Notes under the pieces: generated by a model
The model's database searches: none
What the model was told of the DNA's origin: nothing
What the model saw: the letters and a program-made list of their open reading frames with translations, nothing else
Sequence record: NZ_CP084013.1
Length of the DNA: 64,000 nt
Source of the DNA: a plasmid
Reading direction: 5' to 3' (one strand)
In this document: in pieces, positions 6,192 to 59,599 of the stretch
How the letters are laid out: each line of letters begins with the position of its first letter
How positions within the stretch are numbered: the first letter of the stretch is position 1
Made by a program: the position numbers and the translations under genes

Positions 6192-6489
6192 TCGGGATCT
6201 CCTCCTTGATGCATTCGGGGCATTGCCCGTCCTTCCAGCCGGCCGGATCGATCATGATGTTCGTGCAGGTCGAGCATTCGGGCAGCCGGTGCGCCGGGCA
6301 GTAGTGCATGTCGCGTTCCAATTCGGGATGCTCGTCCTTGTACAGGATCTGCCAGCCGTCATCCTTCGCGTCGAACAGCAGATCGTCCTCGTACGCATAC
6401 CAGTCGTTGATCCGTTGTTCGCAGTTGTGGTCGTCGCATTCGAGCCTGAACCAAGCGCGGCTGTCAAACGTTTCTTTGATTCTTGCCAT
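6178..6489 (-). CDS. hypothetical Cys-rich (zinc-finger-like) protein
   Basis: Start 'MARIKETF' at 6489 is preceded by a GGAGG RBS. Contains 'CDDHNC...HYCPAHRLPECSTC...CPEC'. Confidence 0.45.
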   Translation of the reverse strand: MARIKETFDSRAWFRLECDDHNCEQRINDWYAYEDDLLFDAKDDGWQILYKDEHPELERDMHYCPAHRLPECSTCTNIMIDPAGWKDGQCPECIKEEIPNERS

Positions 6490-8251
6490 CAAGCCTCCGT
6501 TCCTTTGCGTGCGTCCGACGGTATGCGTCGCTCGGCGAGACGTCGGGAGTCGCCGGGCCTTCGACGGCCAGCAAGTCGCCGACATATTCCATATCCACGT
6601 CGCGTTCGTTGAACGCCTTGCGCGTGTACACAAGACGGTTCATGTTGGCGTGGGACAGTACCCAACGCGCTTTCTCCGCGCGTTCGGAATGGTCGTTGTC
6701 GGCAATCGGCCTATCATGCAGGACGGTACGCTTCAACATGGTTCTCAAGCTTTTGACCTCAAGATAATAGTCGGATTTCAGCTTGAACATGTACCCGTCG
6801 GCGTCATACACCACAACGCCCTCACGTGTGGAATCATGACGCTCCTCGTCCAACATGCTCCACAGTGCCTCCCGCTCCTCGTCGGATTGGAAGACGCCCA
6901 ACACCTCCGGCCGGGCGAAGAACCCGTCCATGTCAATCAGCTTGTCGGCGTCATGGTCGATATGGAAGTCCACCGTGTTCCCGATGGCGTGCAGGAACAC
7001 GAGCTGAGACGTATCATACTTGACGATGTGACGGTCGGACTCTTGGTCGATGACCTCGAACGCCAACGTCACGTCGGCATCATGGACGATGTTCCACAAC
7101 GCCTGTTCCTGACCGCCGTCCAACGTCTCCTTGAAGAGCCGTTGTATGAGATACGAGTAGTCGGTCTGTCCGCTCTTCGACCAGAAACGCCACGAACCGT
7201 CTCCGCGTGCGGACACCAAGCCGAGGAACCCGTTCTCCTTGCGTTCCACGCGCACCGGGAACTTGAGACGCTTGTCGATGTTCTCGCGGGTGGTCTGCTC
7301 GTTCTCCCCGAGGTTGAAGAACTTCTCGAATCCTCGTGCCACGACCCTGCCGTTCCCGTCGAGGAACAGGCCGCGCGCCTTGCTGGAATACTCGTCCCAA
7401 CGCTGGTTCTTGAACGCGTCACGACTGAAGTTGCAGGCGTACACGTCGGTCTCGCCTTTGACCGGACGGACGTGTACGTTGTCGGAGTCGCGCATGATGT
7501 CAAGCAGGTTGCTCCCGTCGGCGGAGAAGTCGGCGAACCCGTCTTCGGTCGTATGCGCACCCTGTTCCAGCCACTTCGAGTAACGGTCCAGTGTCCACTT
7601 CACGCCATCCTTGAGCGACGGCATGTCCAAACGGACGGTACCGGTCGCATCACGCCCATTGCTTGAGGCCGCAGTGTAACCCATTTCGGCGTCGTCCACG
7701 GTGCGGGCATTGCCGTCCCACAGCAGTCCCACGTCAACCATCACCGTCTCCCCCATTGGGTTCATACGGTACACGCCGTCCGTCTTCATGACGCGAACGT
7801 TGACCCAACGGCTGTCACGTTCAAGGCACCCATGCCAAGTCTCATACTGGGTGCGCAGATACTTCTCCGGCACACGGTCGCTCTCGACGCGGATCCTGTT
7901 GCGTTCCAGCAGTTCGTCCAACGGCGTGTTGAATGTGAAAGTCTCAACATGCGCCTTGTGACGGACGGCAATCTGCACCTCGTCCACGCAGAAACGCGGG
8001 TTGACATGCTGGGAGTCGCTGATGACATTCACGCCTTTGGCGAGCAGGTCGCTGATGATGGTATGCGCCTGACGGACGAGAATCCTGTTCAACTGTGGAT
8101 TCATGGTTTCATGCCATGCCTGACGGCCTCCCGCCATCATTTCACGCAAACCGTCCAAGCTGACGATTACCGTATTCGAATCGACATGCTTCCGCGCCCA
8201 AGTGCTCTTTCCCGAGCCGGGCAGTCCTCTAAGAATGGTCAAAGTGGTCAA
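6464..8251 (-). CDS. bifunctional polynucleotide 5'-kinase / ATP-dependent RNA ligase (T4 Pnk + Rnl-like), RNA repair enzyme
   Basis: N-terminal P-loop kinase 'LRGLPGSGKSTWARKH'. The central/C-terminal part carries nucleotidyltransferase motif I 'VERKENGFLGLV' (KxNG, the ligase lysine). Apparent TTG start at 8251. Confidence 0.75.
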   Translation of the reverse strand: MTTLTILRGLPGSGKSTWARKHVDSNTVIVSLDGLREMMAGGRQAWHETMNPQLNRILVRQAHTIISDLLAKGVNVISDSQHVNPRFCVDEVQIAVRHKAHVETFTFNTPLDELLERNRIRVESDRVPEKYLRTQYETWHGCLERDSRWVNVRVMKTDGVYRMNPMGETVMVDVGLLWDGNARTVDDAEMGYTAASSNGRDATGTVRLDMPSLKDGVKWTLDRYSKWLEQGAHTTEDGFADFSADGSNLLDIMRDSDNVHVRPVKGETDVYACNFSRDAFKNQRWDEYSSKARGLFLDGNGRVVARGFEKFFNLGENEQTTRENIDKRLKFPVRVERKENGFLGLVSARGDGSWRFWSKSGQTDYSYLIQRLFKETLDGGQEQALWNIVHDADVTLAFEVIDQESDRHIVKYDTSQLVFLHAIGNTVDFHIDHDADKLIDMDGFFARPEVLGVFQSDEEREALWSMLDEERHDSTREGVVVYDADGYMFKLKSDYYLEVKSLRTMLKRTVLHDRPIADNDHSERAEKARWVLSHANMNRLVYTRKAFNERDVDMEYVGDLLAVEGPATPDVSPSDAYRRTHAKERRLDGKNQRNV

Positions 8252-8271: not shown

Positions 8272-8970
8272 TCAGTTCTCCTGAAACATGCGAACAAGTT
8301 CCACTTCGGACACGGGGCGCATGTTCCACGCGTCCAATCCCACGTTGATTTCGTTACGGTTCTTGAACTCATGGGGAGTGTTCGCATGGGTGTGACCGTG
8401 CAGCAATCGCATGCTCTCCCCCACTTGAGGAATCGCATACCGTCGAAGCTCCGACTTCGCCCAATTGGAAGCCACGTCATCCGCTGCCGGTAGGTCGAAG
8501 TCCTCACGCCATTGGAAATGGCAGAGGAACACGGTCATAATGGTTTCGCCGTCCGTGATGTCCGTCATGCCGATACGCCCGATTTCACCGAACGCCTCGG
8601 TCAAATCCTTGAAGCCCTTGCTCTTCCCGTACAGCACGTCGTCATGGTTTCCGAGAATCAGATGACGGTTATTGCGAGGACAGCGCAAGCTTTTGACATG
8701 CATAAGCGCCTGTTGAAGACTCCAAGCGCCTCCGCTGCATAGGTCCCCAAGAATGTAGAGTTCATCATTCGGACCTACGATTTCGTTGATATGGTCGGTC
8801 ACGTCCATGTCATGCCGGTACCAGTTGACGCAATCCTTGACCTGCATGTGGGCTTCGTTAGCCTGTTGCTTGATGGTATTGTCCGACGTGAATCCGGTTT
8901 TCGCATATCCCCGCAATGCGGCCACGAACGGGTGGGCGAAGTGGGTGTCGGAGGTGAAGTATTTAGTCAT
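8272..8970 (-). CDS. calcineurin-like metallophosphoesterase, putative 2',3'-phosphatase partner of the kinase-ligase
   Basis: Motifs 'FTSDTHFAH', 'LYILGDLC', 'LILGNHDD' and 'LLHGHTHAN' match the D-x-H, GD, GNHD and GH-x-H metallophosphatase blocks. AAAGGA RBS before the ATG. Confidence 0.75.
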   Translation of the reverse strand: MTKYFTSDTHFAHPFVAALRGYAKTGFTSDNTIKQQANEAHMQVKDCVNWYRHDMDVTDHINEIVGPNDELYILGDLCSGGAWSLQQALMHVKSLRCPRNNRHLILGNHDDVLYGKSKGFKDLTEAFGEIGRIGMTDITDGETIMTVFLCHFQWREDFDLPAADDVASNWAKSELRRYAIPQVGESMRLLHGHTHANTPHEFKNRNEINVGLDAWNMRPVSEVELVRMFQEN

Positions 8971-9405: not shown

Positions 9406-9420
9406 CGCTCCTCCTCTTTT

Positions 9421-9446
9421 TATGTGGACTTCTTCAGTATAACAAC
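9421..9446 (-). promoter_or_regulatory. conserved element motif (reverse orientation), putative promoter of the minus-strand operon 9405->2221
   Basis: The plus strand reads TATGTGGACTTCTTCAGTATAACA, the reverse complement of the TGTTATACTGAAGAAGTCCACATA-type motif. It sits about 15 nt upstream of the RBS for 8995-9405. Confidence 0.6.
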
Positions 9447-9462
9447 CATATTGTATTTTACA

Positions 9463-9486
9463 TGTTATACTGAATATGTCCACATA
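9463..9486 (+). promoter_or_regulatory. conserved element motif, putative promoter of 9516-10001 (divergent with 9421-9446)
   Basis: TGTTATACTGAATATGTCCACATA, 30 nt upstream of the ATG at 9516. Confidence 0.6.
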
Positions 9487-9515
9487 AAAAGATTGAAAGA
9501 GAAAACCAAAGGAAA

Positions 9516-18398: not shown

Positions 18399-18428
18399 CC
18401 CGACCATTGCGGTCGGGATATTTTTTTT
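18399..18428 (+). terminator. rho-independent terminator
   Basis: Stem CCCGACC / GGTCGGG followed by ATATTTTTTTT. Confidence 0.6.
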
Positions 18429-18508
18429 GGATATCGCCACCAACCGAAAAACGGGTATTTTCAATAGAATATCGGTTAATAACAACATCAAAATCTATCG
18501 TGGAATAT

Positions 18509-27933: not shown

Positions 27934-28226
27934 GCCACCACGCATTCCGCAGGCAAGGCAGTGGCATCCACTCCAAGAACCTTCATTATCCGTCGAGTCG
28001 GAAGATATGGTGCAACGCCGGTGTCAATCAGCCGTTGCACCACGCTTGAATCGACTCGTGCTTTCTCGGCCACTTCATCGACGGTACGGTGCTGCATGAA
28101 CTCGGCCATGACCCTGCGCATACGTTCCGGTGATTCGATGAATCTCACGTTGCTGGCGGTTTTCGGCATGGCCTGCTTGATGCGCTGACGGTACTCGTCG
28201 CTAACCTGCCATTTCTCGTATATCAT
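27930..28226 (-). CDS. hipB: HTH antitoxin partner of HipA (HipB-like)
   Basis: 98 aa with the HTH 'HRTVDEVAEKARVDSSVVQRLIDTG'. Lies immediately upstream of hipA and is translationally coupled to it. Confidence 0.55.
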   Translation of the reverse strand: MIYEKWQVSDEYRQRIKQAMPKTASNVRFIESPERMRRVMAEFMQHRTVDEVAEKARVDSSVVQRLIDTGVAPYLPTRRIMKVLGVDATALPAECVVA

Positions 28227-46625: not shown

Positions 46626-46649
46626 TTATACTGAATCTGTCCACATAGA
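46622..46649 (+). promoter_or_regulatory. conserved element motif
   Basis: TGTTATACTGAATCTGTCCACATAGAAA, about 32 nt before the ATG at 46681. Confidence 0.6.
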
Positions 46650-46680
46650 AAAAAGTGAAGTCAGGAGACCCAAATCCACC

Positions 46681-47505
46681 ATGCCCATCATCGAATTCGA
46701 CACGAAGATGCGAGGCTACGATCCCCAACAAGTCAATGACGCCGTAACCAATTTCCAGGACACCATCAACAAGTATGCGCAAGCAAACACTGATCTGAAG
46801 AGAACCCTGGATACGGTCAACAACCAGTTCACCCAGGCAAACCAAGACATCGATCAGCTGCAAGCCGAAAACAAGAAGCTCTCCGAACGGATCGAAGAAC
46901 TCGAAAAGCAGAACGACGATCTGGAAGCAAAACTCAAGAACAAGTACACGAGCGTGGGCGACGATGTGAGGAAACTCCTCGAAGACACCCAGACCGTTTA
47001 TCATGCTGCGGAAAAGAACGCAGCCGACATCAAGAACAAGGCGCTGCAGGAAGCTGAAAACATTCGCAAGCAGAGCCAGTCCGCCGCGGAGAAAGCGATA
47101 GTGGACGCGCGGCAGGTCGCCGAAAAGAACGTGAAGGAATCCCAAGCGAAGTCGAAGCAGATCATCGAATCCGCGCAGCAGTCCGCCGCACAGTTGCGTA
47201 AGGAAGCCGACTCGTATGCCACTGGACGGCAAAACATCGCGGAGCAGGCCGATGCAAGGGTTCGTGCGATTCTCGGCCGTCTTGAGGAGGCAAGCAAAGT
47301 GCTTGACAACGCCTACCAGTCCGGACGCAAGCCTAACGCCACTACAGTCCAGTCAGCTCCGAAGGATGCGCCAACACCGGTCATCGCCGGCCAGGCCACT
47401 AATCCGAACGAGGCGGATCTTGAAGACGATAGGACCATCGCCTTCGCTCAAATCCATGCGAAGAACACCGCATCCGCACCCGCGACCCCTGTTGACGCCC
47501 AATAA
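46681..47505 (+). CDS. DivIVA-domain coiled-coil protein
   Basis: The N-terminal 'FDTKMRGYDPQQVNDAV' is the DivIVA signature. The rest is a long coiled coil. Confidence 0.7.
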   Translation: MPIIEFDTKMRGYDPQQVNDAVTNFQDTINKYAQANTDLKRTLDTVNNQFTQANQDIDQLQAENKKLSERIEELEKQNDDLEAKLKNKYTSVGDDVRKLLEDTQTVYHAAEKNAADIKNKALQEAENIRKQSQSAAEKAIVDARQVAEKNVKESQAKSKQIIESAQQSAAQLRKEADSYATGRQNIAEQADARVRAILGRLEEASKVLDNAYQSGRKPNATTVQSAPKDAPTPVIAGQATNPNEADLEDDRTIAFAQIHAKNTASAPATPVDAQ

Positions 47506-50463: not shown

Positions 50464-51213
50464 CAGCGATAGGCCACGATCTTGTTCAGGATTTCCTTTT
50501 GTTCGGCGAAATCACCAGAAGCAAGAAGAATCATGGCCGTCGCTCGACTCCGCAAGGAAAATCAAGTGGACAACACCCTCCTAGGAGATCAAGATCGTGG
50601 CCTATCGGTGTAAATGTATTCACCGATAGGCCACTATCGTTCGTTCTCGTTCTTACTGCTATAAAAGAGTATGTCCAGTATGTAGTATGACTATAAGCAC
50701 TGCCCGTCAGCCCTTATAGGAGAAGCGGTTTGAGCAGGTTCGTTACACCGATAGTCCACGGATTCGGCAGTGATATTCCACGGAAACGACACTGATAGGT
50801 CACTAAAACAGCAGCGATAGTCCACTATCATTGCATGGATACTCCACGTTGCAAGACCATCGTCAAAGGCGATTGCACCGATAGTCCATCATTGGATGCA
50901 CCGATAGGCCACTATCCGCGAAAAGTGCCGGATAGTGGCAGTATACAAGGCATGGAACCGTCGGATAAGCAACGCAGTAATACTGCGGAAGAAAGGTTTT
51001 TGCACCGATAGGCCATCAACAGAGACAAGAAAACAGCATCGATAGGCCACTACGTGTGGGATGAAATCCACGAATCAACTTCAAAAAAATTGGGAAACTG
51101 CACCGATAGGCCACGTGTCGATACAGCGATATGCCATCAGCATCAAAAACCGACTGCATTAAGCACTGATCTGCATCAGCGAATAAGGTGGGACGATTAG
51201 TGGCCTATCGCTG
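50464..51213 (+). repeat. array of about 13 copies of a 14-bp motif CACCGATAGGCCAC, in both orientations at irregular 20-60 bp spacing
   Basis: Copies at 50464, 50597(rev), 50621, 50746, 50790, 50811, 50875, 50898, 51003, 51037, 51100, 51124 and 51200(rev). The pair 50597/50621 forms a palindrome around TAAATGTAT. The array lies 3' of dcm and 3' of the RepA-like gene at 51205-52185. Confidence 0.75.
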
Positions 51214-52185
51214 CCAATCGCCCCGCCCCTCGTCCAAAGCACGCCGTTCCGCCTTGGGTGGGACGGACGTTGGCGACGGGTGCAGGATGATGCCGTCCCG
51301 GGTGGTTTCCACGTTCGCGGCGGGATACACGTCGTGAATCTTCTTCAATGCTTCACGGAACTTGGCTTTGAACACGCGGCGTTCCTTGATGCTGTCGCCG
51401 AAACGTCCGTGCAGCCAATCCCAATCCAATGTGAGGTCGTGATGCAGGTTGCGGAATGTTCCGGTCAGCCACACGTACACGTCGTAGGGGAGCACTGATT
51501 TGCCGGACAGCAGGTAGTTGGTGGCACGAGTGTCGAATGGTGCCGACTCCTGGGCGAGCCTGTCCCACACTTCATCGGTGAGGATGAACTTGGCGCCGCT
51601 GAAATCCTGATTATTGTTATCGTTCAGGAAGCTGACGGCCTTCACCATCTGCATGTTCACGGAGTCGAACCGATCCCGGTTGCCCGCAAACCCGGTTTTC
51701 TGCCTGATGCTGATATGACAGTACAGGAGACGGCGCAACTGTTCCTGCAAACGTTTCGATGACTGTCCTCCACGGGGTATGCCGAGCTCTTCGGACAACT
51801 GGTACATGCTGGGAATCGTGATGGTGTGCTGCGACGGGTCAACGGTCGGGGTTTTCCTTGTTCCCGCAGAGCGAATCTGCTTTGCCATCCACGCCATCAA
51901 CAGTCGGGGATATTTCCCGTAGGGGAAGTCCCTTGACCTGGTGAGGCTATCGATACCGGCTTCGAGGATGTATTCGACGGTACTGTTGTCTTTGCTGACG
52001 AAGTCGGTGCCTTCCGCCGGGGGAGTGGCGGGGAAAAGGGTGCTGGTGAGGATGCTGTGCCCGTACCAGATTTCCTTACTGTCCGGCAAACGGTTTTCGA
52101 TGTCTGAGATCGTGGCTACCCGGTCGAGCACGAGGTCGGTTGAATGGGTAGCTGGTTTCGTGTTGTCCGGACTGTTGTTGGTCAT
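51205..52185 (-). CDS. RepA-like DNA-binding/initiator protein (paralog 2)
   Basis: Shares 'YGK.PRL' ('FPYGKYPRLLMAWMAKQ') and 'YDVYVWLTGTFRNL' with the RepA-like protein at 28896-29945. Confidence 0.55.
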   Translation of the reverse strand: MTNNSPDNTKPATHSTDLVLDRVATISDIENRLPDSKEIWYGHSILTSTLFPATPPAEGTDFVSKDNSTVEYILEAGIDSLTRSRDFPYGKYPRLLMAWMAKQIRSAGTRKTPTVDPSQHTITIPSMYQLSEELGIPRGGQSSKRLQEQLRRLLYCHISIRQKTGFAGNRDRFDSVNMQMVKAVSFLNDNNNQDFSGAKFILTDEVWDRLAQESAPFDTRATNYLLSGKSVLPYDVYVWLTGTFRNLHHDLTLDWDWLHGRFGDSIKERRVFKAKFREALKKIHDVYPAANVETTRDGIILHPSPTSVPPKAERRALDEGRGDWQR

Positions 52186-52362
52186 GGTTCTCTATGGTAG
52201 CGGCAATCAGCGGAATACGAAAAAACGATGTTTGGTGGCGCTTGTCCGGGTTTTCCCCGGTGCGACACGCCGTATATCAAACATATTTTTTTGTTATTAA
52301 CCGTTGATATTTCAACATTATGGCTTGTTTATAGGGTTTCTCTTTTTTGACAGCATCAAAAT

Positions 52363-52392
52363 ACTTGTTATACTGAATGTGTCCACATAGAA
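52363..52392 (+). promoter_or_regulatory. conserved element motif; the downstream region lacks a clear intact gene
   Basis: GTTATACTGAATGTGTCCACATAGAAATG. The next recognisable coding feature is the tnpB remnant. Confidence 0.5.
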
Positions 52393-52741
52393 ATGAAAGA
52401 GGTTCAAGGATCCATCAAATCGGATCATTTCTTCGACTTCTCTCAAGACTGCAATCCGACAAAAGCGGATCATCCCGGAGCAAGACCGGGGCAGTCGCGA
52501 AGCATCCTGCGTAGGAAGCCAACCACTACACCACGCACGTGATGCGGACGCTTGAAAACCGAAGAGAGACACCAAAAACATTCGTGTCCAAGGCAACTCT
52601 AGCCCGCATGGGCGTGAGGACAAGACCTTGGACCATACGCCACCCTTGCAAGGTGGCAGCAGTAAAGACATGGGTTGAACGGCTGAAGTTCACGCCGTTC
52701 AACCCATATCACCTGTTCAGTTCGGCCGGTTCTGGTTTCGG

Positions 52742-52900
52742 ATGTACCGCGACTACAATGCGGCCCTGAACATTCTCGACGCGGCAGGGCTTGCCGAGTC
52801 GTTAAACGCGCATGGAGACGGTATAAGACTGCGCTTGGCTTCGGCCAAGCGCAGCAGCCGTCAGGGAAGTGCGAACCCTACAGGCGGAACGCTTGCGCGT
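52742..52900 (+). pseudogene. TnpB C-terminal remnant (RuvC-III 'RDYNAALNI'), with a possible adjacent omega-RNA-like structured region
   Basis: 'MYRDYNAALNILDAAGLAESLNA' is only the extreme C-terminus of a TnpB. The following 52850-52990 is rich in hairpins, for example GGAACGCTTGCGCGTTCC. Confidence 0.4.
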
Positions 52901-53285
52901 TCCGCGCTGGGAATCCCGGTGCTAAAGCACCGGGAGGAAGTCAATGGGGCTGACAGGCTTTCGATAGCCTGCCGGAAACCATTTGCTACGTGCCGGAGGC
53001 CGGTAAGGACAACCGTCATCAACCTTGCCACAAGAATAGACGCCAACACCGTTTCTTCTTCCCGTTTCACCCTCGTAGCGTGAAACCCGACTTTGATCCC
53101 ATTGCCGATTAACGGGTCAAAGCCGGAAAACTTTGAATCGGACTGGTCGGACAGTCGGACGATGGATTCGCCCGACCAGTACATGAACATCGTCTACAAG
53201 CCGTGCGGGTTCGCCGAACGCACCCGTCCACGGATGATCTTCCCCACGCAAGTGGGGATAAACCTACGCACGTGACAGCAAGCAA

Positions 53286-53335
53286 AGGCTGACAGCAGGC
53301 CAGATCCGAGTTCGATTCTCGGCAGCTCCACGACC
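53286..53335 (+). other. tRNA 3'-half-like fragment (T-arm + acceptor strand only)
   Basis: CCGAG TTCGATT CTCGG CAGCTCC A has a canonical T-loop, but there is no matching 5' acceptor strand upstream. Confidence 0.3.
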
Positions 53336-53438: not shown

Positions 53439-53520
53439 GGTGGTGTGGCCCAGCGGCGACGGCAGCAGACTGTAAATCTGCGACAAGGAAACACCGGAGG
53501 TTCGAGTCCTCCCGCCACCA
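53439..53520 (+). tRNA. tRNA-Tyr (anticodon GTA)
   Basis: Acceptor GGTGGTG/CGCCACC. Anticodon arm GCAGA CTGTAAA TCTGC. Long variable arm. T-arm GGAGG TTCGAGT CCTCC. Close to the E. coli tRNA-Tyr layout. Confidence 0.8.
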
Positions 53521-53708
53521 CTATCCGCCTGGTTGCAAACAGGCGGATTAACAGGTAGCGGCGCCTTCAAGGCCGTGCTGTGGTTTTCGTTTGCACACAG
53601 TATCTAAACAACAAACGGATTTTATCCGCTGTCAGGCCAGTCTCATTAGTCTGACAGCGAACGGTAAAAGCCGGAATGATACGCGCCATGAGACGACGCG
53701 TTCCGGCC

Positions 53709-53768
53709 GGCTTCGTAGCTCAAACGGCGGAGCATGCATGGTTGGTGGTTCGAATCCACCCGGAGCCA
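53709..53768 (+). pseudogene. truncated tRNA-like element lacking an anticodon arm (60 nt)
   Basis: Acceptor GGCTTCG/CGGAGCC, D-arm GCTC...GAGC and T-arm GGTGG TTCGAAT CCACC. Only 10 nt sit where the anticodon arm should be. Confidence 0.4.
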
Positions 53769-54025
53769 CGTTTTTGACAGGTCTTACAACCGGAGAGTCG
53801 AGGACTGTGAAGAAAAACTGGAAGAGCGTGCAAATCCTAGGTCGCACGCTTGGAAGGGGAGGTTTCGCAGGAGGTTAGGAAAACCGGTGGAGACAGTCTA
53901 AACACGCGAAAGAATCAAGATGAAAGCATCGTGGTACTGGCTTAAGACGGTGCCAGAATCTGAGGAAATCGCGTTTAATAGGGCACGTACGTAGCTGGTA
54001 AGCCACGGAGTCCTGTCAAAAATAT

Positions 54026-54099
54026 CGGATTGTGGCGCAGTTTGGTAGCGCACGTGCTTTGGGAGCATGGGGTCGCAGGTTCGAATCCTGTCAATCCGA
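54026..54099 (+). tRNA. tRNA-Pro (TGG)
   Basis: Acceptor CGGATTG/CAATCCG. U8. Anticodon arm CGTGC TTTGGGA GCATG, with G37. Confidence 0.8.
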
Positions 54100-54179
54100 C
54101 TCGGAGACCAGCCATCCCTCTTTCGGCTGGCGGACTATACGTCACCGCCGTGCGACGTATCCGAAAAAAGCACGGCAAT

Positions 54180-54254
54180 GCGGATGTGGTGCAGTGGCAG
54201 CACGCCTGCTTCCCAAGCAGGAAACCGCGGGTTCGAACCCCGTCATCCGCTCCA
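54180..54254 (+). tRNA. tRNA-Gly (CCC), CCA encoded
   Basis: Acceptor GCGGATG/CATCCGC. Anticodon loop TTCCCAA. T-loop TTCGAAC. The 3' end reads TCCA. Confidence 0.8.
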
Positions 54255-54389
54255 TCCGGAAAACCAAAACAATGGATCTGATCCAACAATGGGACTCGTA
54301 ACCGTCCTTTCCATGGGACGTTTCCGGAGAAACATGGACGAACAGCCTCGGCATGGGCGCACATCGTCTAGGAAGAAAACATGCCAGTC

Positions 54390-54461
54390 GCCCCGGTAGC
54401 TCAGAGGAAGAGCAGGTGCCTTTTAAGCACTGGGTCCGGATATCGTAATTCCGTCGGGGCA
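54390..54461 (+). tRNA. tRNA-Lys (TTT) with a non-canonical T-arm
   Basis: Acceptor GCCCCGG/TCGGGGC. Anticodon arm GGTGC CTTTTAA GCACT. The T-region CGGA TATCGTAAT TCCG lacks the GTTC/TPsiC consensus. Confidence 0.55.
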
Positions 54462-54625
54462 CGATGCTTGGTACATCGCCGAGCATAAGCGCATCAATCT
54501 ATTATCGGATAGGCTGCGGCAACTTCTTCTTCCGGCCGCGCGCGAAACAAGGGAAGGAAAACACACAGTGCGACGGACCAGGGAAGGGCCTATAACCCAG
54601 ATCCCATAACAGTCCGTCGTACGGT

Positions 54626-54697
54626 GCCTCTGTAGCTTAAATGGTAGAGCAACGGTCTGAAGCACCGTGGATGCTGGTTCGATTCCAGACGGAGGCA
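54626..54697 (+). tRNA. tRNA-Phe (GAA)
   Basis: Acceptor GCCTCTG/CGGAGGC. Anticodon arm ACGGT CTGAAGC ACCGT. Confidence 0.75.
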
Positions 54698-55025
54698 CGA
54701 AGCAATCCATCCGATCAATGGACTGCTTTCAGGGAGTGATCGAACAATCGCATCGGAAACGAGGCGATAAGATGAGCCGGGCCCGGCAGGGTGGTTTGCG
54801 ACCGAACCGGCGGCACGTCCAGAGGGGATCTGACATGATCTCGTTTGTCCTCGACGTTGCTGGTAAAACCCAATCCAGTCTCCCGATTCCCCTCCATCTG
54901 TCATTCAGGACGGATGGGGAGGACGCTCTTTTTGCAGCGATGGTCTCCGGAGCGACATCAATGAGGACCATGCCGAACACGGCCCGGCACAGGCGTACGT
55001 CGTTAAAGGAACGAAATGTGCCATC

Positions 55026-55101
55026 GCCCTCGTAGCTCAATCGGATTCAGAGCGTTGGTCTACGGAACCGGAGGTTGCGGGTTCGAACCCCGCCGAGGGC
55101 A
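55026..55101 (+). tRNA. tRNA-Arg (ACG)
   Basis: Acceptor GCCCTCG/CGAGGGC. Anticodon loop CTACGGA. T-arm GCGGG TTCGAAC CCCGC. Confidence 0.8.
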
Positions 55102-55152
55102 CTCGGAGCAGGAAGCTATTCCGCTGCCTATCTTCGGCTTCCTGCTCCACAT

Positions 55153-55227
55153 GCGTCGGTAGCTTAACGGCAGAGTACCGGTCTCCAAAACCGGTGGGTG
55201 TGAGGTCGAGACTCACCCGACGTGCCA
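55153..55227 (+). tRNA. tRNA-Trp (CCA), CCA encoded
   Basis: Anticodon arm CCGGT CTCCAAA ACCGG. T-arm GTGAG GTCGAGA CTCAC. The 3' end reads G-CCA. Confidence 0.7.
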
Positions 55228-55352
55228 GGACGGTATTGTTTGGCTCCTTACTCACTCACGGATTCGTCAAGCCGAATGATACCGTTCCACCCGGTTCCGA
55301 TCGTCGTTTGAAGGATTTCCTATTCTCTTCGGCTGTTCGACCGGAACCATCG

Positions 55353-55434
55353 CCCCGTTGGCGGAACTGGTAGACGCATCCGGCTCAAACCCGGATTCCT
55401 GACGGAGTGAGGGTTCAACTCCCTCATGGGGCAC
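55353..55434 (+). tRNA. tRNA-Leu (CAA), type II
   Basis: Acceptor GCCCCGT/ATGGGGC. Anticodon arm TCCGG CTCAAAC CCGGA. Long variable arm. T-arm GAGGG TTCAACT CCCTC. Confidence 0.8.
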
Positions 55435-55687
55435 TATCCGTTGGAACCTTTTCGCACTCGCTTTGAAAAGATTTCAACGGATATTCTTCCGATTGGCGTG
55501 CCTAGTTTCTTTCTTCTTTCATTGACAGGTACGGCATGTTCCAGCTGCCTTGGAGTCGGACAGTGGAAGAAAAAAACGACTCCAAATAATCTTGGATGGC
55601 CGGTTTGAAAACAGATAACCAATGCGAAATTACTCCTTTGGAAAAGGGTTGTCGCTTTTTCTTGAACCACCCGGCCATCCACCATCC

Positions 55688-55762
55688 GCTTCCGTAGCTC
55701 AGTGGAATCAGAGCAGACGGCTTCTAATCGTCCGGTCGTGGGTTCGAATCCCACCGGGAGCA
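55688..55762 (+). tRNA. tRNA-Arg (TCT)
   Basis: Acceptor GCTTCCG/CGGGAGC. Anticodon arm GACGG CTTCTAA TCGTC. T-arm GTGGG TTCGAAT CCCAC. Confidence 0.8.
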
Positions 55763-55812
55763 CGAGATCCACACGAATACGTCAACCAGTTTGTTCCTTC
55801 GTGCGGATCGGT

Positions 55813-55897
55813 GGAGTAGTGGCAGAGCGGTCGAATGCGACTGTCCCGAAAGCAGCAGGGGCGCAAGCCCCCGGAGGTTCGAATCCTCCCTACTCCG
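55813..55897 (+). tRNA. tRNA-Ser-like (CGA), type II, with unusual C33 and an A27:C43 mismatch
   Basis: Acceptor GGAGTAG/CTACTCC. Ser-type D-arm. Anticodon arm ACTGT CCCGAAA GCAGC. Variable-arm hairpin AGGGGCGCAAGCCCCC. T-arm GGAGG TTCGAAT CCTCC. Confidence 0.55.
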
Positions 55898-55976
55898 CGA
55901 ACCCCGCATGAAAATCGTTCCCATGAGGGGTTTATCGAGGTTTGGCCGGTGTGCCCCGTACTGAAAACACTGGCAT

Positions 55977-56062
55977 GGATGGTGGGCCGTGCGGCAAAGG
56001 CGCAGTCCTGCTAAGACTGTTGGGGCGGAAGTCCCTGGCGAGTTCGACTCTCGCACCATCCG
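55977..56062 (+). tRNA. tRNA-Ser (GCT), type II
   Basis: Acceptor GGATGGT/ACCATCC. Anticodon arm CAGTC CTGCTAA GACTG. Long variable arm. T-arm GCGAG TTCGACT CTCGC. Confidence 0.8.
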
Positions 56063-56179
56063 CTAGCCGATCTGCAGTGATAGGCCACGGGATAGGACCT
56101 GGAATCCAGTCAGCAAAACGGGTTGGATCGGCATGGCGGAACGCAGTCGGGCATACGTGTCCGATGCGTTCGCGCACAT

Positions 56180-56250
56180 TCCTCCTTGGTGTAACGGCAG
56201 CACACGGGTCTTTGGAACCCATAGTCCTGGTTCGAAACCAGGAGGAGGAG
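56180..56250 (+). tRNA. tRNA-Gln (TTG)
   Basis: Acceptor UCCUCCU/AGGAGGA, with the U1:A72 pair typical of bacterial tRNA-Gln. Anticodon loop CTTTGGA. T-arm CCTGG TTCGAAA CCAGG. Confidence 0.75.
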
Positions 56251-56358
56251 CTTAGCGGCAGCACCTCGAATTGATTTTCCCTCTACACTCGATTCGACGT
56301 TTGTTGTACCGGACATACAGGAGGTCAGGCGCCAACCCAAGCCGCGAAACGACGCCAC

Positions 56359-56431
56359 GCCCTTGTAGCTCAGTGGATAGAGCGTCCGTCTCCGGAACGG
56401 AAGGCCACGAGTCCGATTCTCGTTGAGGGCA
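56359..56431 (+). tRNA. tRNA-Arg (CCG)
   Basis: Acceptor GCCCTTG/TGAGGGC. Anticodon arm TCCGT CTCCGGA ACGGA. T-arm ACGAG TCCGATT CTCGT. Confidence 0.7.
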
Positions 56432-56526
56432 CGCACGAAAACTCCGCCAACCATAATGCACGGAGCCCTTCTTCTCTTCTCTCTCAAACCGTCGCGCCTC
56501 GTACGGCTCGTGCATCACGAGGCAAC

Positions 56527-56599
56527 GCCCTTGTAGCTCAACGGATAGAGCGCCGGTTTCCTAAACCGGGCGCAGCCGGTCCGACTCCGGCCATGGGCA
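56527..56599 (+). tRNA. tRNA-Arg (CCT)
   Basis: Acceptor GCCCTTG/CATGGGC, with one U:U mismatch. Anticodon arm CCGGT TTCCTAA ACCGG. T-arm GCCGG TCCGACT CCGGC. Confidence 0.7.
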
Positions 56600-56603
56600 C
56601 GAT

Positions 56604-56678
56604 GCCTTGTTAGCTCAGTCGGTTAGAGCGCGGAGCTCATAACTCCATGGTCGTTGGTTCAAGCCCAACACGAGGCAC
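56604..56678 (+). tRNA. tRNA-Met (CAT), elongator-type
   Basis: Acceptor GCCTTGT/ACGAGGC. Anticodon loop CTCATAA. T-arm GTTGG TTCAAGC CCAAC. Confidence 0.75.
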
Positions 56679-56809
56679 TAGGATACCGTCGTCAACGTCA
56701 CCGCCTGTTCTCTCGATCCATGGGGAATGGGGATGGAGCGATGGATGGCATTGCAGCTTTTAGTCCTTTCAGCTTAGGCTAAGCCGTTCAGCGTCGGCAT
56801 CCGATAATC

Positions 56810-56883
56810 GCATTGCTAGCTCAGTCGGTTAGATCACCCTGCTCATAACGGGGAGGTCGTTGGTTCGATTCCAGCGCAATGCA
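56810..56883 (+). tRNA. tRNA with CAT anticodon and CCC/GGG anticodon stem (initiator-like stem with paired 1:72; Met or Ile2)
   Basis: Acceptor GCATTGC/GCAATGC. Anticodon arm CCCTG CTCATAA CGGGG. T-arm GTTGG TTCGATT CCAGC. Confidence 0.65.
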
Positions 56884-57014
56884 CGAGTGCCGTATTTTGA
56901 CGGTTCCCGCACTCGGTAAAAACGGAACCGTTGGAGTCCCGACCGGCCTCCGTCGTGATAAATCCCCGGTCAGGCAAACGCATGGGTCGTACGATCATGA
57001 CGCGCAACCGTGCG

Positions 57015-57084
57015 GGGCGTTGGTGTAATGGCAGCACGCCACCCCCTGTGGGTGGAGATCCGGGTTCGAATCCCGTGGCGTCCG
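57015..57084 (+). tRNA. tRNA-Gln-like (CTG), slightly irregular
   Basis: D-arm nearly identical to tRNA-Gln(TTG). Anticodon arm CCACC CCCTGTG GGTGG, with C33. T-arm CGGG TTCGAAT CCCG. Acceptor pairing GGGCGTT/GGCGTCC includes G:U pairs. Confidence 0.5.
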
Positions 57085-57125
57085 CTAAGGAATCCGCTTC
57101 TGATACGGTGTGCGGATTCCTGTTT

Positions 57126-57197
57126 GCGGTGTTAGCACAACGGTTAGTGCCTCAGTCTTCCAAACTGATTACGCGGGTTCGATTCCCGTACACCGCT
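57126..57197 (+). tRNA. tRNA-Gly (TCC)
   Basis: Acceptor GCGGTGT/ACACCGC. Anticodon arm TCAGT CTTCCAA ACTGA. T-arm GCGGG TTCGATT CCCGT. Confidence 0.8.
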
Positions 57198-57615
57198 CGA
57201 TACGATTCCATGCCCGTTGGGAGTTCCCGGCGGGGAAGCCATGACCATGCGACTCGTGTCCGATGATCCGCGCCTCCGTTTGTTCGACGGACACGCGGAT
57301 ATCGCCGGCGCCCATCATTCCAGGATGATGCGAACAGCCCCCGTCGGAGGGGTCGGCGCGAATCCGATCTGCCCATCCGCCAAGTGCGGACAGGGTTTCC
57401 TGAGTCGTAATCGATTACGCCTCTTGTCAGCCGATCCACATGATGTGGAAACGGTCTCGGTGGAGCATGGGCGTCATAGCCCGTGATCCTCGTCATGCCT
57501 CATGCCGTAGTATGCGCGTCCACCGCAAGCATGAGTGCAAGGATCCGGCACGAGTGGCCGGATCGATTGTGGACTGTGCGGATATTGCGACCTCGCAAGG
57601 GTGGTATCCGCACAT

Positions 57616-57689
57616 GCTTTCGTAGCCCAACCGGTAGAGGCAACAGTCTAAGGAACTGTCCAGTCCGGGTTCGAACCCCGGCGAAAGCA
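57616..57689 (+). tRNA. type-I tRNA with apparent anticodon AAG (identity uncertain)
   Basis: Acceptor GCTTTCG/CGAAAGC. Anticodon arm ACAGT CTAAGGA ACTGT. Short variable arm. T-arm CCGGG TTCGAAC CCCGG. An AAG anticodon would read Leu codons, but the fold is not a type-II Leu tRNA. Confidence 0.5.
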
Positions 57690-57965
57690 CCAGCGGAAGC
57701 AACGGCGTCAACGCCACCCGATCCGGTTCGAACGTCTGACGGAACGGGAACGATGCTACGGTAGGTTCTCTCCATAACTGGGACCCGTAACCGTTGCAGC
57801 GCCCACTTCCGCTCATATTCTTGCGGAATATGATGTCAACGCCACCACCCGCCCGCTGCCATATTGGGGCGGAGTGGAACGATGGTCAAGGCGCAGGCCT
57901 GCACCTCAGTGGCCTGAACAGAACCGCCTCTCCAGCATCGTATCCGCAACACCGCTTCGTCCTTT

Positions 57966-58040
57966 AACGGTAGGATGCTCTGTTTTTTTTTGGAGTAATG
58001 CGGGTTCGAATCCCGTCGAAGCACGATGGGCCCAGTGGCC
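57966..58040 (+). pseudogene. tRNA-like element whose anticodon region is a T9 homopolymer (degenerate Lys-TTT-like or slipped)
   Basis: Acceptor GCTTCG/CGAAGC and T-arm GCGGG TTCGAAT CCCGT are present, but the anticodon arm reads CTCTG TTTTTTTTT GGAG. Confidence 0.35.
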
Positions 58041-58162
58041 ACATGCGAAAAAACTGGGTTCCCGAATGGGAGCAGTCTGTGGCCGATGGCATGAACCGGC
58101 CGCAGGACAAGCATCCCTGCCTCGCATGGCCCATCCGCCGTTCCTCATGCCGGAACGGTTCC

Positions 58163-58235
58163 GCCGTCGTAGCTCAGCTGGCAGAGCAGCGCCCTCGTAA
58201 TGCGCAGGTCACCGGTCCGAATCCGGTCGATGGCT
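58163..58235 (+). tRNA. tRNA-Thr (CGT)
   Basis: Acceptor GCCGTCG/CGATGGC. Anticodon arm GCGCC CTCGTAA TGCGC. T-arm ACCGG TCCGAAT CCGGT. Confidence 0.75.
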
Positions 58236-58259
58236 CTTTCTCCACTAAAAACCGACCTG

Positions 58260-59599
58260 TTTGGCCTTTCGCTGTTTGGTGTGGGTGGGTCTGTCAGGTG
58301 GTGACGGTGCTGAGGTCGAGTTTGCCGCAGGTCAGGTAGATCATGGTGCTGAAGTAGCCCATGTTCTTGAATCCGCGGGCTCGGGTCTTGACGTTCTGGA
58401 TGACGCTGTTGAGTCCTTCGAGGATCGCGTTGGTGTAGGGGTGGTCGAAGTAGGCGAGGATGTCCCGCCAGTGGCGGCGTATCTGGCGGGCGAACTCTTT
58501 CATGGGTTCGAGTCGGGAGCGCGTCATCCACGAGCACAGACGCTTGAGGGCCGTCTCGGCCTCGGCTCGATCGGCGCTGGTGTCGTAGATGTCCTGGAGG
58601 GTCTCGCGCATCTGACAGGCGCGTCCGGTTTTCAATCGTCGCCGTTGCAGGCTGCGCTTGGTTTCCAATTGCAGGCCGGTCAGGTTCGATTCGTTCCTCA
58701 ACCACAGGTACTTGGTCCGCTTGAGCAGCGCGTTGCCGCGGGCCTCCTGTTTGCGGACCTTGTCGACGGCCTCGTTGGCGTGTTTGATCACGTGGAACTT
58801 GTCGATGATTCTCGCCGCGTTGGGCAGCCGCTCGCGGATGCCCTTGGCGAACCCCAGGCTCATGTCGCAGGTAACCAGACGCACCCGGTCGGGATCGCCG
58901 TTGTGATCCATGAAATCCCGCGCGAACCGTTTGATCGTGGTCGAGTCCTTGCCCGGGACCACGCAGATTACGTTGCGCTCCACCAGGTCGGCGACCACGG
59001 TGATGTACCGGTGGCCCTTCCGGCTGGTCTCGTCGATGCCTATGGCCTCCACGCCCGTGTAGTCCTCGTAAAGCCTCGCCTCGTCCACGTAATGGCGGAT
59101 GAACCGCCACAGGCGGGTGTCATGTTCGCCGACCTGCTCGGCGATGTCCGCGACCGGCTGGCTTTTGGCCAGCTCCACGACCATCGCCTCGAACAGGAGC
59201 GTGAACCCGCTTCCCGGCCTCGCCCACGGCACCGGGACCGCGTGCACGCCGTGGGCGGGGCACGTCACGCGCGGCACGCCCGCGTGAATGAACGCCTTGT
59301 ACTGGAAGAAGTTCAGATGCCGCCACACGCGCTCCCTCGCGTCATGCACCGGACACGCGGCCTCGCCGCACCCCGGTTCCGGGCAGGGGAACCGCGAACC
59401 CGCCGCGAACCCGATCGCGATATGCAGTTCCCGTCTGCCGTCCTCCTCGTCACGGAACTCCACGCCCGACACCCTCCACGGGTCAGGCAGTTGCAGAGCG
59501 GCGGTGAACAACGACGTGGTATCCATACCCCCCAAACTACCCGACCAGCACCACCACCCCCCGACCCACTCACCCACACCAAACAGCGAAAGGCCAAAA
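58260..59599 (-). mobile_element. ISL3-family insertion sequence
   Basis: 28-bp terminal inverted repeats with one mismatch (24 bp are perfect): GGCCTTTCGCTGTTTGGTGTGGGTGGGT at 58260-58287 is the reverse complement of 59572-59599. No target-site duplication is obvious. The insertion lies about 25 bp after the last tRNA. Confidence 0.8.
58294..59526 (-). CDS. ISL3-family DDE transposase
   Basis: 'MDTTSLFTAALQLPDPWRV...' with the N-terminal zinc-binding region and C-terminal DDE region characteristic of ISL3 transposases. Start taken at the internal 'MDTTSLF'. Confidence 0.8.
   Translation of the reverse strand: MDTTSLFTAALQLPDPWRVSGVEFRDEEDGRRELHIAIGFAAGSRFPCPEPGCGEAACPVHDARERVWRHLNFFQYKAFIHAGVPRVTCPAHGVHAVPVPWARPGSGFTLLFEAMVVELAKSQPVADIAEQVGEHDTRLWRFIRHYVDEARLYEDYTGVEAIGIDETSRKGHRYITVVADLVERNVICVVPGKDSTTIKRFARDFMDHNGDPDRVRLVTCDMSLGFAKGIRERLPNAARIIDKFHVIKHANEAVDKVRKQEARGNALLKRTKYLWLRNESNLTGLQLETKRSLQRRRLKTGRACQMRETLQDIYDTSADRAEAETALKRLCSWMTRSRLEPMKEFARQIRRHWRDILAYFDHPYTNAILEGLNSVIQNVKTRARGFKNMGYFSTMIYLTCGKLDLSTVTT

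Follow-up and report, generated by a model that had tools for sequence, protein, structure and literature searches.

The locus analysed here is a cluster of tRNA genes on a plasmid, contained in a 64,000-nucleotide stretch of sequence record NZ_CP084013.1 (hereafter, the window). ARAGORN, run on the whole 64-kb window, predicted 20 tRNA genes, all on the plus strand and confined to positions 53439 to 58236, with no further tRNA gene outside this interval. At 20 genes in 4.8 kb, or 4.2 genes per kb, the cluster conforms to the published definition of a tRNA array unit (at least 20 tRNA genes at a density of at least 2 per kb; Tran et al. 2016, PMC4758250), the gene number lying exactly at the threshold. 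The array encodes tRNAs for Tyr (GTA), Pro (TGG), Gly (CCC and TCC), Lys (TTT), Phe (GAA), Arg (ACG, TCT, CCG, and CCT), Trp (CCA), Leu (CAA), Ser (CGA and GCT), Gln (TTG and CTG), and Thr (CGT), together with two genes with the anticodon CAT and one with AAG, a set identical in number and anticodons to that listed in an earlier note on this DNA. The bulk of the array does not fall below a pseudogene threshold: 19 of the 20 genes pass the gathering score of the Rfam tRNA family RF00005 (29 bits), 18 of them at 45.9 to 69.3 bits and Gln(CTG) at 30.4 bits. Two extra tRNA-like elements, at 53709–53768 and 57953–58024, are interspersed with these genes. We conclude that the array is real and probably functional.

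Searching PLSDB with the 5.4-kb region yielded matches restricted to Bifidobacterium plasmids, and all of the matching records belong to rep_cluster_329. Four B. longum megaplasmids matched at 95.9–98.1% identity over 94–96% of the region, and B. breve plasmid pMP7017 at 92.2% identity over 74%. The order RepA, transfer-messenger RNA (tmRNA), array is common to the window, the four B. longum plasmids, and pMP7017. The flanks of the array are mosaics of matches to those same family plasmids, with 68% of positions 40000–64000 aligned with them at 97% identity. Because every matching record is a plasmid and the locus abuts repA, a chromosomal tRNA cluster conserved across the genus is excluded. 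The claim that the array resides on a mobile element with flanks rich in insertion sequences (IS) was borne out by the adjoining RepA gene, IS elements, and conjugation-type genes. The window encodes two RepA_C proteins, FtsK/SpoIIIE-type ATPases, an AAA_10 (VirB4-like) ATPase, a lysozyme/CHAP protein, and HipA as backbone functions, as well as three TnpB proteins and an ISL3 transposase located straight after the last tRNA gene. Judged by these matches, the locus is the tRNA array unit of a conjugative Bifidobacterium megaplasmid of the pMP7017 family, in a B. longum-type variant.

The element is not of a new kind. The earlier note had treated it as a possible discovery, whereas the array of pMP7017 has already been published as a "tRNA array unit" of 20 tRNA genes in three transcription units beside the replicase gene (Dineen et al. 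2024, PMC10832533), having first been counted as 14 tRNAs (Bottacini 2015, as given in PMC10832533); what we describe is its presence in a new plasmid variant. RNA sequencing of pMP7017 revealed high transcription of 17 of the 20 array tRNA genes and of a 397-nt tmRNA between repA and the array, within which a manA motif was also reported (PMC10832533). The array tRNAs of pMP7017 share 74–90% overall identity with host tRNAs or have no detectable host match (Table S5, PMC10832533), and the codon analysis in the same study led its authors to hold that the array fits the pool of tRNAs in the cell to the plasmid's codon usage.

The codon usage of the window leads to the same conclusion. We compared the 22 confident open reading frames (ORFs) of the window, comprising 10,786 codons, with the codon fractions of B. 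breve JCM7017 (Table S6, PMC10832533), taking as array-cognate the 18 codons that are Watson–Crick matches to array anticodons, with ATA included on the assumption that the first CAT tRNA (no. 1) is tRNA-Ile2. The mean log2 ratio of window to B. breve usage was 0.61 for the 18 array-cognate codons versus 0.04 for the 41 others (Mann–Whitney p = 0.001). Seven codons (GGA, GGG, ATA, AAA, CCA, AGA, and AGG) are over-used 2.1- to 2.6-fold in the window and CGG 1.9-fold; for ATA, the fraction is 0.12 versus 0.05 in B. breve, in line with a tRNA-Ile2-like CAT no. 1. The sole strongly over-used codon without a cognate in the array of the window is ACA (2.2-fold), and three relatives have a Thr(TGT) gene for this codon shortly downstream of their arrays. 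The published conclusion on pMP7017 is thus repeated independently and on a different plasmid variant. Of the two functions that the earlier note had proposed, compensation for a codon usage mismatch is supported by this test and by the published analysis, and an answer to tRNA-targeting defences has no direct support, the loop-flank test presented below being negative.

We therefore favor, with a probability of roughly 0.6, the reading of the array as a supplementary decoding set that suits the codon preferences of the plasmid. The array tRNAs would join the host pool as extra decoders, their anticodons serving codons that the plasmid uses beyond the host chromosome (GGA, GGG, AGA, AGG, CGG, AAA, CCA, and CAA) and AUA probably being served through a lysidine-type tRNA-Ile2. 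Translation of plasmid genes would be made less dependent on the recipient Bifidobacterium. Its expression would start in the region close to the replication genes and be shared with the tmRNA, which would contribute ribosome rescue, and the addition of an array-linked RNA-repair operon would turn the locus into a translation-support island. We infer, on this reading, that the array tRNAs are aminoacylated, take part in actual decoding, and confer a fitness benefit.

Several considerations speak against supplementary decoding. The published codon table of B. longum NCIMB8809 is near the usage of the plasmid (PMC10832533), and hence the mismatch to be compensated is small in the main host species. 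For 7–8 amino acids, there is no tRNA in the array, and tRNAs are present for codons that are already common (TTC, TAC, CAG, and CGT). Near-universal positions (U33, U55, T54, G53–C61, and U8) are altered in 8 of the 20 genes, and two members, one without an anticodon arm and the other with a run of U residues as the loop, are unable to decode; simple codon supply explains neither the deviant genes nor the non-decoding members. Codon compensation fails for comparable mycobacteriophage arrays (van den Berg et al. 2023). Finally, the evidence for transcription stems from pMP7017 and from the work of others and applies to the plasmid analyzed here by analogy; our own observations concern gene content, family membership, synteny, the codon correlation, and structural conservation.

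Table 1. Features of the tRNA array, of its surroundings, and of the linked repair cassette in the window.
Feature	Position	Strand	Evidence
Fusion, 595 aa: polynucleotide-kinase-like P-loop domain and Rnl1-family RNA ligase	6464..8251	-	Pfam
Metallophosphoesterase, 232 aa, candidate end-healing phosphatase	8272..8970	-	Pfam Metallophos E=6.8e-8
Promoter-region segment homologous to DNA directly 3' of the array in relatives, inverted here	9417..9509	-	blastn
RepA-family replication protein, divergent from the RNA cluster	51205..52185	-	Pfam RepA_C E=2.3e-10
Putative promoter TTGACA-16-TATACT with TG, upstream of tmRNA	52347..52374	+	Consensus scan, 11/12 matches
IS605-family tnpB 3'-end remnant and downstream non-coding part, abutting the tmRNA 5' end	52712..52940	+	Frame translation
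tmRNA, tag peptide ANTVSSSRFTLVA	52946..53331	+	ARAGORN; Rfam RF00023 84.5 bits, full length
tRNA-Tyr(GTA), type II	53439..53521	+	ARAGORN; Rfam 55 bits
tRNA-like RNA with acceptor, D, and T arms, without anticodon arm	53709..53768	+	Rfam tRNA 44.8 bits; fold
tRNA-Pro(TGG)	54026..54100	+	ARAGORN; Rfam 64.6 bits; identical in 11 loci
tRNA-Gly(CCC), encoded CCA	54180..54254	+	ARAGORN; Rfam 69.3 bits
tRNA-Lys(TTT), non-canonical T arm (U53/U61, A54, U58)	54390..54462	+	Rfam 45.9 bits
tRNA-Phe(GAA)	54626..54698	+	ARAGORN; Rfam 59.9 bits
manA-like structured RNA, between Phe and Arg(ACG)	54716..54889	+	Rfam RF01745 48.2 bits, E=2.9e-10, under gathering score 55.2
tRNA-Arg(ACG)	55026..55102	+	ARAGORN; Rfam 61.7 bits
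tRNA-Trp(CCA), G54, encoded CCA	55153..55227	+	ARAGORN; Rfam 57 bits; 5 compensatory pairs among orthologues
tRNA-Leu(CAA), type II	55352..55434	+	ARAGORN; Rfam 54.1 bits
tRNA-Arg(TCT)	55688..55763	+	ARAGORN; Rfam 64.7 bits
tRNA-Ser(CGA), C33	55813..55898	+	Loop CCCGAAA; Rfam 48.3 bits
tRNA-Ser(GCT), G8, 6-bp anticodon stem	55977..56063	+	ARAGORN
tRNA-Gln(TTG)	56180..56251	+	ARAGORN; Rfam 53.8 bits
tRNA-Arg(CCG), T-loop C55	56359..56432	+	ARAGORN; Rfam 62.5 bits
tRNA-Arg(CCT), T-loop C55	56527..56600	+	ARAGORN; Rfam 57 bits
CAT tRNA no. 1, probably tRNA-Ile2 (lysidine type, reads AUA)	56604..56678	+	Similarity to E. coli tRNA-Ile with CAT
CAT tRNA no. 2, elongator-type (Met-like)	56810..56884	+	G1-C72 paired; anticodon stem CCCUG/CGGGG
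Aberrant Gln(CTG)-like tRNA: C33, U37, 1 nt between acceptor and D stems	57015..57085	+	Rfam 30.4 bits; fold
tRNA-Gly(TCC)	57126..57198	+	ARAGORN; Rfam 67.6 bits
Type-I tRNA, anticodon AAG, A73, encoded CCA, Leu-like D arm	57616..57692	+	Rfam 55 bits
tRNA-like RNA, anticodon loop a U run (T9 here)	57953..58024	+	Rfam 29.6 bits; fold
tRNA-Thr(CGT), C55; last gene before rearrangement breakpoint	58163..58236	+	ARAGORN; Rfam 57.2 bits
ISL3-family transposase, downstream breakpoint of the array	58294..59577	-	Pfam DDE_Tnp_ISL3 E=3.8e-68

The positions of all features are listed in Table 1. For the analysis of conservation, orthologues were drawn from four plasmid records and ten IMG/VR contigs carrying the array, and the tests were made over 15 related loci; where single loci are named, L001 denotes CP146883 p1, L002 to L004 further related plasmids, L010 contig CAYPQM010000069.1, L019, L023, L024, L026, and L034 IMG/VR contigs, and L029 and L030 further loci with array variants. 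Across the 20 genes, none of the 60 anticodon positions is variable, compared with 133 of the 1442 other positions. Compensatory double changes were found at 21 stem pairs, and 94–100% of pair cells are paired in each gene. Since the anticodons are invariant and the stem pairs compensated, the view that members of the array are pseudogenes is weakened, including for the AAG tRNA and Gln(CTG). The covariation is evidence that the odd members too are under structural selection. As for the loop flanks (positions 32, 33, 37, and 38), 8 of 80 are variable versus 133 of 1442 positions elsewhere (Fisher p = 0.84), that is, without excess; such variability is our own proxy for diversifying change, not a formal criterion of nuclease-evading tRNAs. 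Because the flanks vary no more than the rest, the data give no hint of an arms race acting on the loop.

Among the genes that depart from near-universal positions, Arg(CCG), Arg(CCT), and Thr(CGT) carry C55 in place of the universal U55, Trp carries G54, and Ser(GCT) carries G8. The T arm of Lys(TTT), which the earlier note described as lacking a TΨC loop, is altered but not absent: its stem, CGGAU/UUCCG, has a U53/U61 mismatch instead of G53–C61, and A54 and U58 are swapped relative to T54/A58, yet the 7-nt loop AUCGUAA keeps U55 and C56. This gene is identical in 19 of 20 loci, probable phage contigs included. The C33 that had been pointed out in Ser(CGA) is indeed present and is retained in 11 of the 11 loci having the gene. 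More broadly, C33 occurs in 18 of the 108 distinct tRNA sequences of the megaplasmid arrays, and a limited literature search returned no description of such use of C33. Ser(GCT), for its part, finds its best Rfam clan match in the tRNA-Sec model, at 43.8 bits and below the gathering score of 47, and 100% of its pair cells are paired across five variants; this match, like the arm-less element at 53709 and the manA-like RNA, came from a second, more permissive Rfam run.

The two CAT tRNAs differ in identity, and neither resembles an initiator. Over 92% of its length, the first has 81% identity to E. coli genes that are annotated as tRNA-Ile and have a CAT anticodon; it shares with them the D arm and a near-identical T arm and, to judge from this similarity, is probably a tRNA-Ile2 of the lysidine type that reads AUA. 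In L001 and L003, its loop has variants with C33. The second had been taken for an initiator-like tRNA, an identification that does not stand. Initiators have unpaired C1/A72, whereas here G1–C72 is paired, and the anticodon stem is 5'-CCCUG/CGGGG-3' (C27 C28 C29 U30 G31 / C39 G40 G41 G42 G43) and not GGG/CCC at 29–31/39–41, so that the run has the opposite orientation and lies away from the loop. No informative match to this tRNA was found among E. coli tRNAs.

The presence of a type-I tRNA with the anticodon AAG was likewise borne out. Its variable loop measures 5 nt and it lacks the long variable arm of type II, and therefore it is no canonical tRNA-Leu. It nonetheless has A73 and a Leu-type D arm (3-bp stem, 11-nt loop, G18G19), with the D loop CAACCGGTAGA compared with GAACTGGTAGA in the Leu(CAA) of the array. 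Over four variants (the window, pMP7017, and two metagenomic ones), four anticodon-stem pairs changed in a compensatory manner and none was broken. From these features, it looks like a Leu tRNA minus its long arm. The E. coli LeuRS is not known to require a long variable arm. Further type-I tRNAs with Leu anticodons are found in pMP7017 (TAA) and in L010 (CAA, GAG, and CAG). In Gln(CTG), two compensatory pairs separate the window from pMP7017. Orthologues of Arg(TCT) in eight relatives have a weakened anticodon stem, which makes the register ambiguous, and received the ARAGORN label "Pyl(cta)" (L003 9233–9307, L004 9060–9134, and six IMG/VR loci). A variable site (T/C after CCTTA) breaks a pair in the CTA register and is unpaired in the TCT register, and because it disrupts pairing in the former alone, we favor Arg(UCU) with a weak stem, placing the amber-suppressor reading second.

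Both non-decoding elements had been recognized correctly. The truncated tRNA at 53709 keeps the acceptor, D, and T arms, and a 10-nt linker replaces the anticodon arm. Its sequence is unchanged in 9 of 11 related loci, pMP7017 among them, where the surrounding DNA is 85–96% identical. The element with nine T residues in place of an anticodon folds as a cloverleaf with a U-run anticodon loop. The window has T9, CP146883 has T8, one metagenomic contig has T7, and both pMP7017 and L029 have T5, so none of the five variants has a standard 7-nt loop, and in L029 the stem CUCU/GGAG is changed to CCCC/GGGG, which is compensatory. Variation in run length is recurrent, as it differs across independent assemblies. 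In pMP7017, the arm-less and U-run elements are listed as "tRNA2, tRNA-OTHER" and "tRNA18, tRNA-OTHER," respectively (Table S5, PMC10832533). Homopolymer-length differences within anticodon loops were seen at window positions 57980–57988, L029 6834–6908, and L030 7409–7479, and comprise the U run, a Leu(TAA) variant with an 8-nt loop (CCCTAAAC), and a Gln(CTG) variant minus one C; these differences could be real phase-like variation or assembly errors.

The oddities extend beyond the megaplasmid family. Scanning genome contigs with the Lys T-arm 18-mer gave 13 hits (~17 expected by chance), 12 of which have no tRNA at the site; no Bifidobacterium chromosome was matched, and L010, a contig of a Streptosporangiaceae metagenome-assembled genome, was the sole real array among the genome contigs. 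It carries, at 2060–6434, an independent array of 33 tRNAs scoring 44–69 bits in Rfam. Twelve of these have C33, three are type-I Leu tRNAs, and Lys(CTT) has the exact Lys T arm of the window (CCGGAUAUCGUAAUUCCGG). This recurrence suggests that the unusual departures may be common to arrays of actinobacterial mobile elements. The same 18-mer led to five IMG/VR contigs of 35–116 kb (L019, L023, L024, L026, and L034) with a small cluster that comprises, in full, Ile(TAT), Thr(TGT), Arg(TCT), and Lys(TTT), some loci showing only part of it. The Lys gene is identical to that of the window in four of the five contigs and one base off in L019. In the two contigs examined, L026 and L034, the cluster adjoins genes for a UvsX-like recombinase, DnaB, a DnaC-like loader, and a resolvase; by this gene content, the contigs are probably Bifidobacterium phages. 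In a collection of cultured phages, the array had no homologue; the matches there amounted to unspecific similarity of single tRNAs, chiefly tRNA-Pro.

These data bear on the notion that the array is decaying cargo, acquired once from a phage or an actinobacterial element and hitch-hiking beside the replication region, with the aberrant members being pseudogenes. The eight deviant genes and the two elements that cannot decode fit such a scenario, and so does variation between plasmids: relatives have gained or lost Leu(TAA), Cys, Trp, Leu(CAA), CAT, and Arg(CCG) genes, IS elements interrupt the arrays of some of them, and anticodon-loop homopolymers vary. We nevertheless regard decay as very unlikely. 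In pMP7017, transcription is high for 17 of the 20 genes (PMC10832533), the anticodons are invariant, and compensation is seen in the oddest members (four pairs in the AAG tRNA, two in Gln(CTG), and the stem of the U-run element). Moreover, the arm-less element is identical in nine loci in which neighboring DNA differs by up to ~15%, and C33, type-I Leu tRNAs, and the Lys T arm recur in the distant Streptosporangiaceae array.

Upstream of the array, the divergently oriented RepA is 98–100% identical to the array-adjoining RepA of the B. longum plasmids and 89–100% across the family. SecE and SecG copies are annotated near the replication region of related plasmids (L004 963–1608). A supposed truncated tRNA at 53286 turned out to be the 3' tRNA-like end of a complete tmRNA, the tag of which ends in ...FTLVA in the window, ...FTLAA in pMP7017, and ...LTA in one metagenomic variant. 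The tnpB remnant at the 5' end of the tmRNA translates as ...RDYNAALNIL..., the C-terminal motif of the window's own TnpB, and is present in L003 and L004 and missing from L001 and L002. The manA-like RNA occupies the position of the manA motif reported in pMP7017; neither it nor the tmRNA figured in the earlier description. Rfam matches to "Plastid-ycf2" (on the minus strand of tRNAs), YrlA, sX4, HgcC, and Transposase-2 were all far under threshold and were disregarded. Elsewhere on the plasmid, the 1473-aa AAA_10 (VirB4-like) ATPase (18407–22828, plus strand) has a homing-endonuclease (Hom_end) segment suggestive of an intein, and there are genes for a HipA-family toxin (26635–27945, minus strand) and a DivIVA-domain protein (46597–47505, plus strand).

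Downstream, homology to the other family plasmids stops at 58236, beside the ISL3 element. In nine related loci, an RNA-ligase/phosphatase operon lies 1–4 kb downstream of the array (13158–16027 in L001) and encodes two small proteins, an RNA ligase (PHA02142 OB domain and RNA_ligase), and a HAD/NT5C-like phosphatase, joined in five loci by a FemAB protein. None of the relatives' FemAB, PHA02142-type ligase, HAD phosphatase, and TROVE protein is encoded in the window. The inverted promoter-region segment at 9417–9509, however, is 88–93% identical to L001 13158–13209 and its equivalents in L002 to L004, and behind it, on the minus strand, the window has a cassette for a 162-aa protein, a metallophosphoesterase, and a kinase–Rnl1 fusion. 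The kinase domain of the fusion (Pfam AAA_33, E=1.1e-20, residues 4–137) matches T4 Pnk (1ly1 and 1ltq) and the C. thermocellum Pnkp kinase (4jst) in PDB, and its ligase domain (Pfam RNA_lig_T4_1, E=4e-34) matches T4 Rnl1 (2c5u) and a fungal tRNA ligase (6n0v), with a KENG motif that aligns with the ligase lysine motif KxNG. The 232-aa metallophosphoesterase is a calcineurin-like protein, a fold that bacterial Pnkp also uses; its other matches are weak and generic.

The kinase–Rnl1 ligase and the ligase of the relatives share no sequence homology, and the cassette now lies ~49 kb from the array, via an IS-associated rearrangement. Wherever the available sequence of a locus extends far enough, RNA-repair genes are linked to the array. 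That one cassette has given way to a functional analogue behind a shared promoter region suggests selection for the repair function. The pairing of the array with an RNA-repair operon, which the earlier note had put forward, is accordingly supported by synteny for the two genes with recognizable domains; the five further minus-strand ORFs of that operon (2454–6633) have no detectable family, with no match in Pfam or NCBIfam. In L001, a 508-aa TROVE/Ro60-like protein is encoded straight after the array at 10014–11540 (PDB 9l5y, E=1e-25; weak Ro60 vWA Pfam match), a gene seen in CP146883 alone among the related plasmids.

Linked repair genes bring into consideration a counter-defence or anti-toxin island, in which the array tRNAs would withstand attack themselves, or replace host tRNAs that tRNA-targeting nucleases or toxins cleave or modify, a role that may coexist with codon supply. 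The attackers would be host defences met at conjugative entry or the plasmid's own toxins of the TacT/HipA/RelE type; TacT, HipA, and RelE are all encoded on pMP7017 (PMC10832533), and a HipA gene is present in the window. Kinase, phosphatase, and ligase would reseal cleaved tRNAs, the tmRNA would free stalled ribosomes, and the non-decoding RNAs might serve as decoys. Consistent with this scenario are the array linkage of the PHA02142-type ligase and HAD phosphatase in nine loci, the non-homologous kinase–Rnl1 and metallophosphoesterase cassette behind the same promoter region in the window, and the TROVE/Ro60-like protein directly after the array in L001. C33 in 18 of 108 distinct array tRNAs and the T-loop residues C55, G54, or A54 point the same way. 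The probable phage contigs combine the identical odd Lys(UUU) with Thr(UGU), Arg(UCU), and Ile(UAU), and Lys(UUU) and Thr(UGU) are the targets of PARIS AriB in E. coli. The evasion of anticodon nucleases by phage tRNAs is well established as a concept (van den Berg et al. 2023), work on T4, T5, and mycobacteriophages agrees with a counter-defence role, and plasmid arrays of Mycobacterium have been called putative anti-defence elements (PMC12803027). Against it, no tRNA-targeting nuclease was identified in the Bifidobacterium hosts here, the loop flanks are no more variable than the rest of the genes, and counter-defence does not predict the observed correlation of anticodons with codon usage. 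On balance, we consider counter-defence the main rival of codon supply, but a tentative possibility. A more specific version, in which the RepA-proximal island of tmRNA, array, and interchangeable healing/sealing or Ro60-type cassettes is a counter-measure serving conjugative spread, with C33, C55, and the A54/U58 Lys T arm as escape changes shared by arrays of actinobacterial mobile elements and the arm-less and U-run RNAs as non-decoding decoys or regulators, appears doubtful.

The operon of the relatives raises one more alternative, namely that some array tRNAs feed the peptidoglycan-bridge transferase encoded there and act outside the ribosome. A FemAB protein (Pfam E=2.7e-94) is encoded downstream of the array in five loci, the array has two Gly, two Ser, and one Thr tRNA, and the altered T loops could weaken use by EF-Tu or the ribosome. 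However, the window and pMP7017 keep the array without FemAB, its presence co-varies with no specific tRNA, and the idea is purely circumstantial. As FemAB is absent from the window, it cannot account for the array analyzed here, and we hold it to be highly improbable.

Supplementary decoding thus remains the reading that we prefer. Upkeep of megaplasmid expression across B. longum and B. breve bears on bifidobacterial gene flow in the infant gut, given that pMP7017-type megaplasmids are present in ~10% of sampled gut microbiomes, mainly those of infants and mothers (PMC10832533). To the published picture, our analysis adds corrected identities of individual members (tRNA-Ile2-like; Leu-like type I; not an initiator), covariation evidence for structural selection on the odd ones, and different RNA-repair cassettes at the same array-adjoining position, which makes a role in counter-defence experimentally testable. 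Beyond the known array, interest attaches to the two tRNA-like RNAs that are conserved yet cannot decode, to the recurrence of C33 and C55, to the Lys T arm in common with a distant actinobacterial array, and to the swapping of repair cassettes.

Several known systems are comparable to the array. The Streptosporangiaceae array of L010 shares C33, type-I Leu tRNAs, and the same Lys T arm, but its tRNAs are 64–79% identical to those of the window, cover nearly all amino acids, and belong to a different host family, and there is no tmRNA in the 8 kb fetched. Phages T4 and T5 likewise encode their own tRNAs, including Lys(UUU) and Thr, along with a 5'-kinase, a phosphatase, and an Rnl1-family ligase, and phage tRNAs and ligases are known to defeat PrrC, PARIS, and retron nucleases. 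Unlike in the T4-type pathway, kinase and ligase are fused in the window, and a separate metallophosphoesterase would stand in for the HAD domain of T4 Pnkp; the window, moreover, is part of a plasmid and not of a lytic phage.

Arrays with a tmRNA and a structured RNA have been described in chromosomes, plasmids, and phages of Mycobacterium (Morgado & Vicente 2018, PMC5966550), and those of the plasmids have been termed putative anti-defence elements (Yano et al. 2026, PMC12803027). They resemble the present array in being carried by actinobacterial mobile elements, in clustering at least 20 tRNAs, often with a tmRNA and a structured RNA inside, in having divergent "anticodon domain" variants, and in their suggested anti-defence role. 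Nevertheless, they belong to another genus, reside on giant linear plasmids or phages as opposed to a circular conjugative megaplasmid, and contain a structured RNA of ~430 nt in place of the manA-like one; homology between the two is not shown here.

By far the closest counterpart is the array of pMP7017, which belongs to the same family and occupies the same locus, at 92% identity over 74% of the region. The window has Trp, Leu(CAA), Ser(CGA), Arg(CCG), and two CAT tRNAs that are missing from pMP7017, whereas pMP7017 has Leu(TAA), Ser(TGA), Cys, and a downstream Ala tRNA that are missing from the window. In addition, a tnpB remnant abuts the tmRNA of the window, and the RNA ligase/HAD operon of pMP7017 is replaced by the kinase–Rnl1 and phosphoesterase cassette, displaced by ~49 kb. 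Despite these differences, the two plasmids share the order RepA, tmRNA, Tyr, arm-less element, Pro, Gly, Lys, Phe, manA, Arg ... Thr, a near-identical tmRNA tag, and the same two "tRNA-OTHER" elements.

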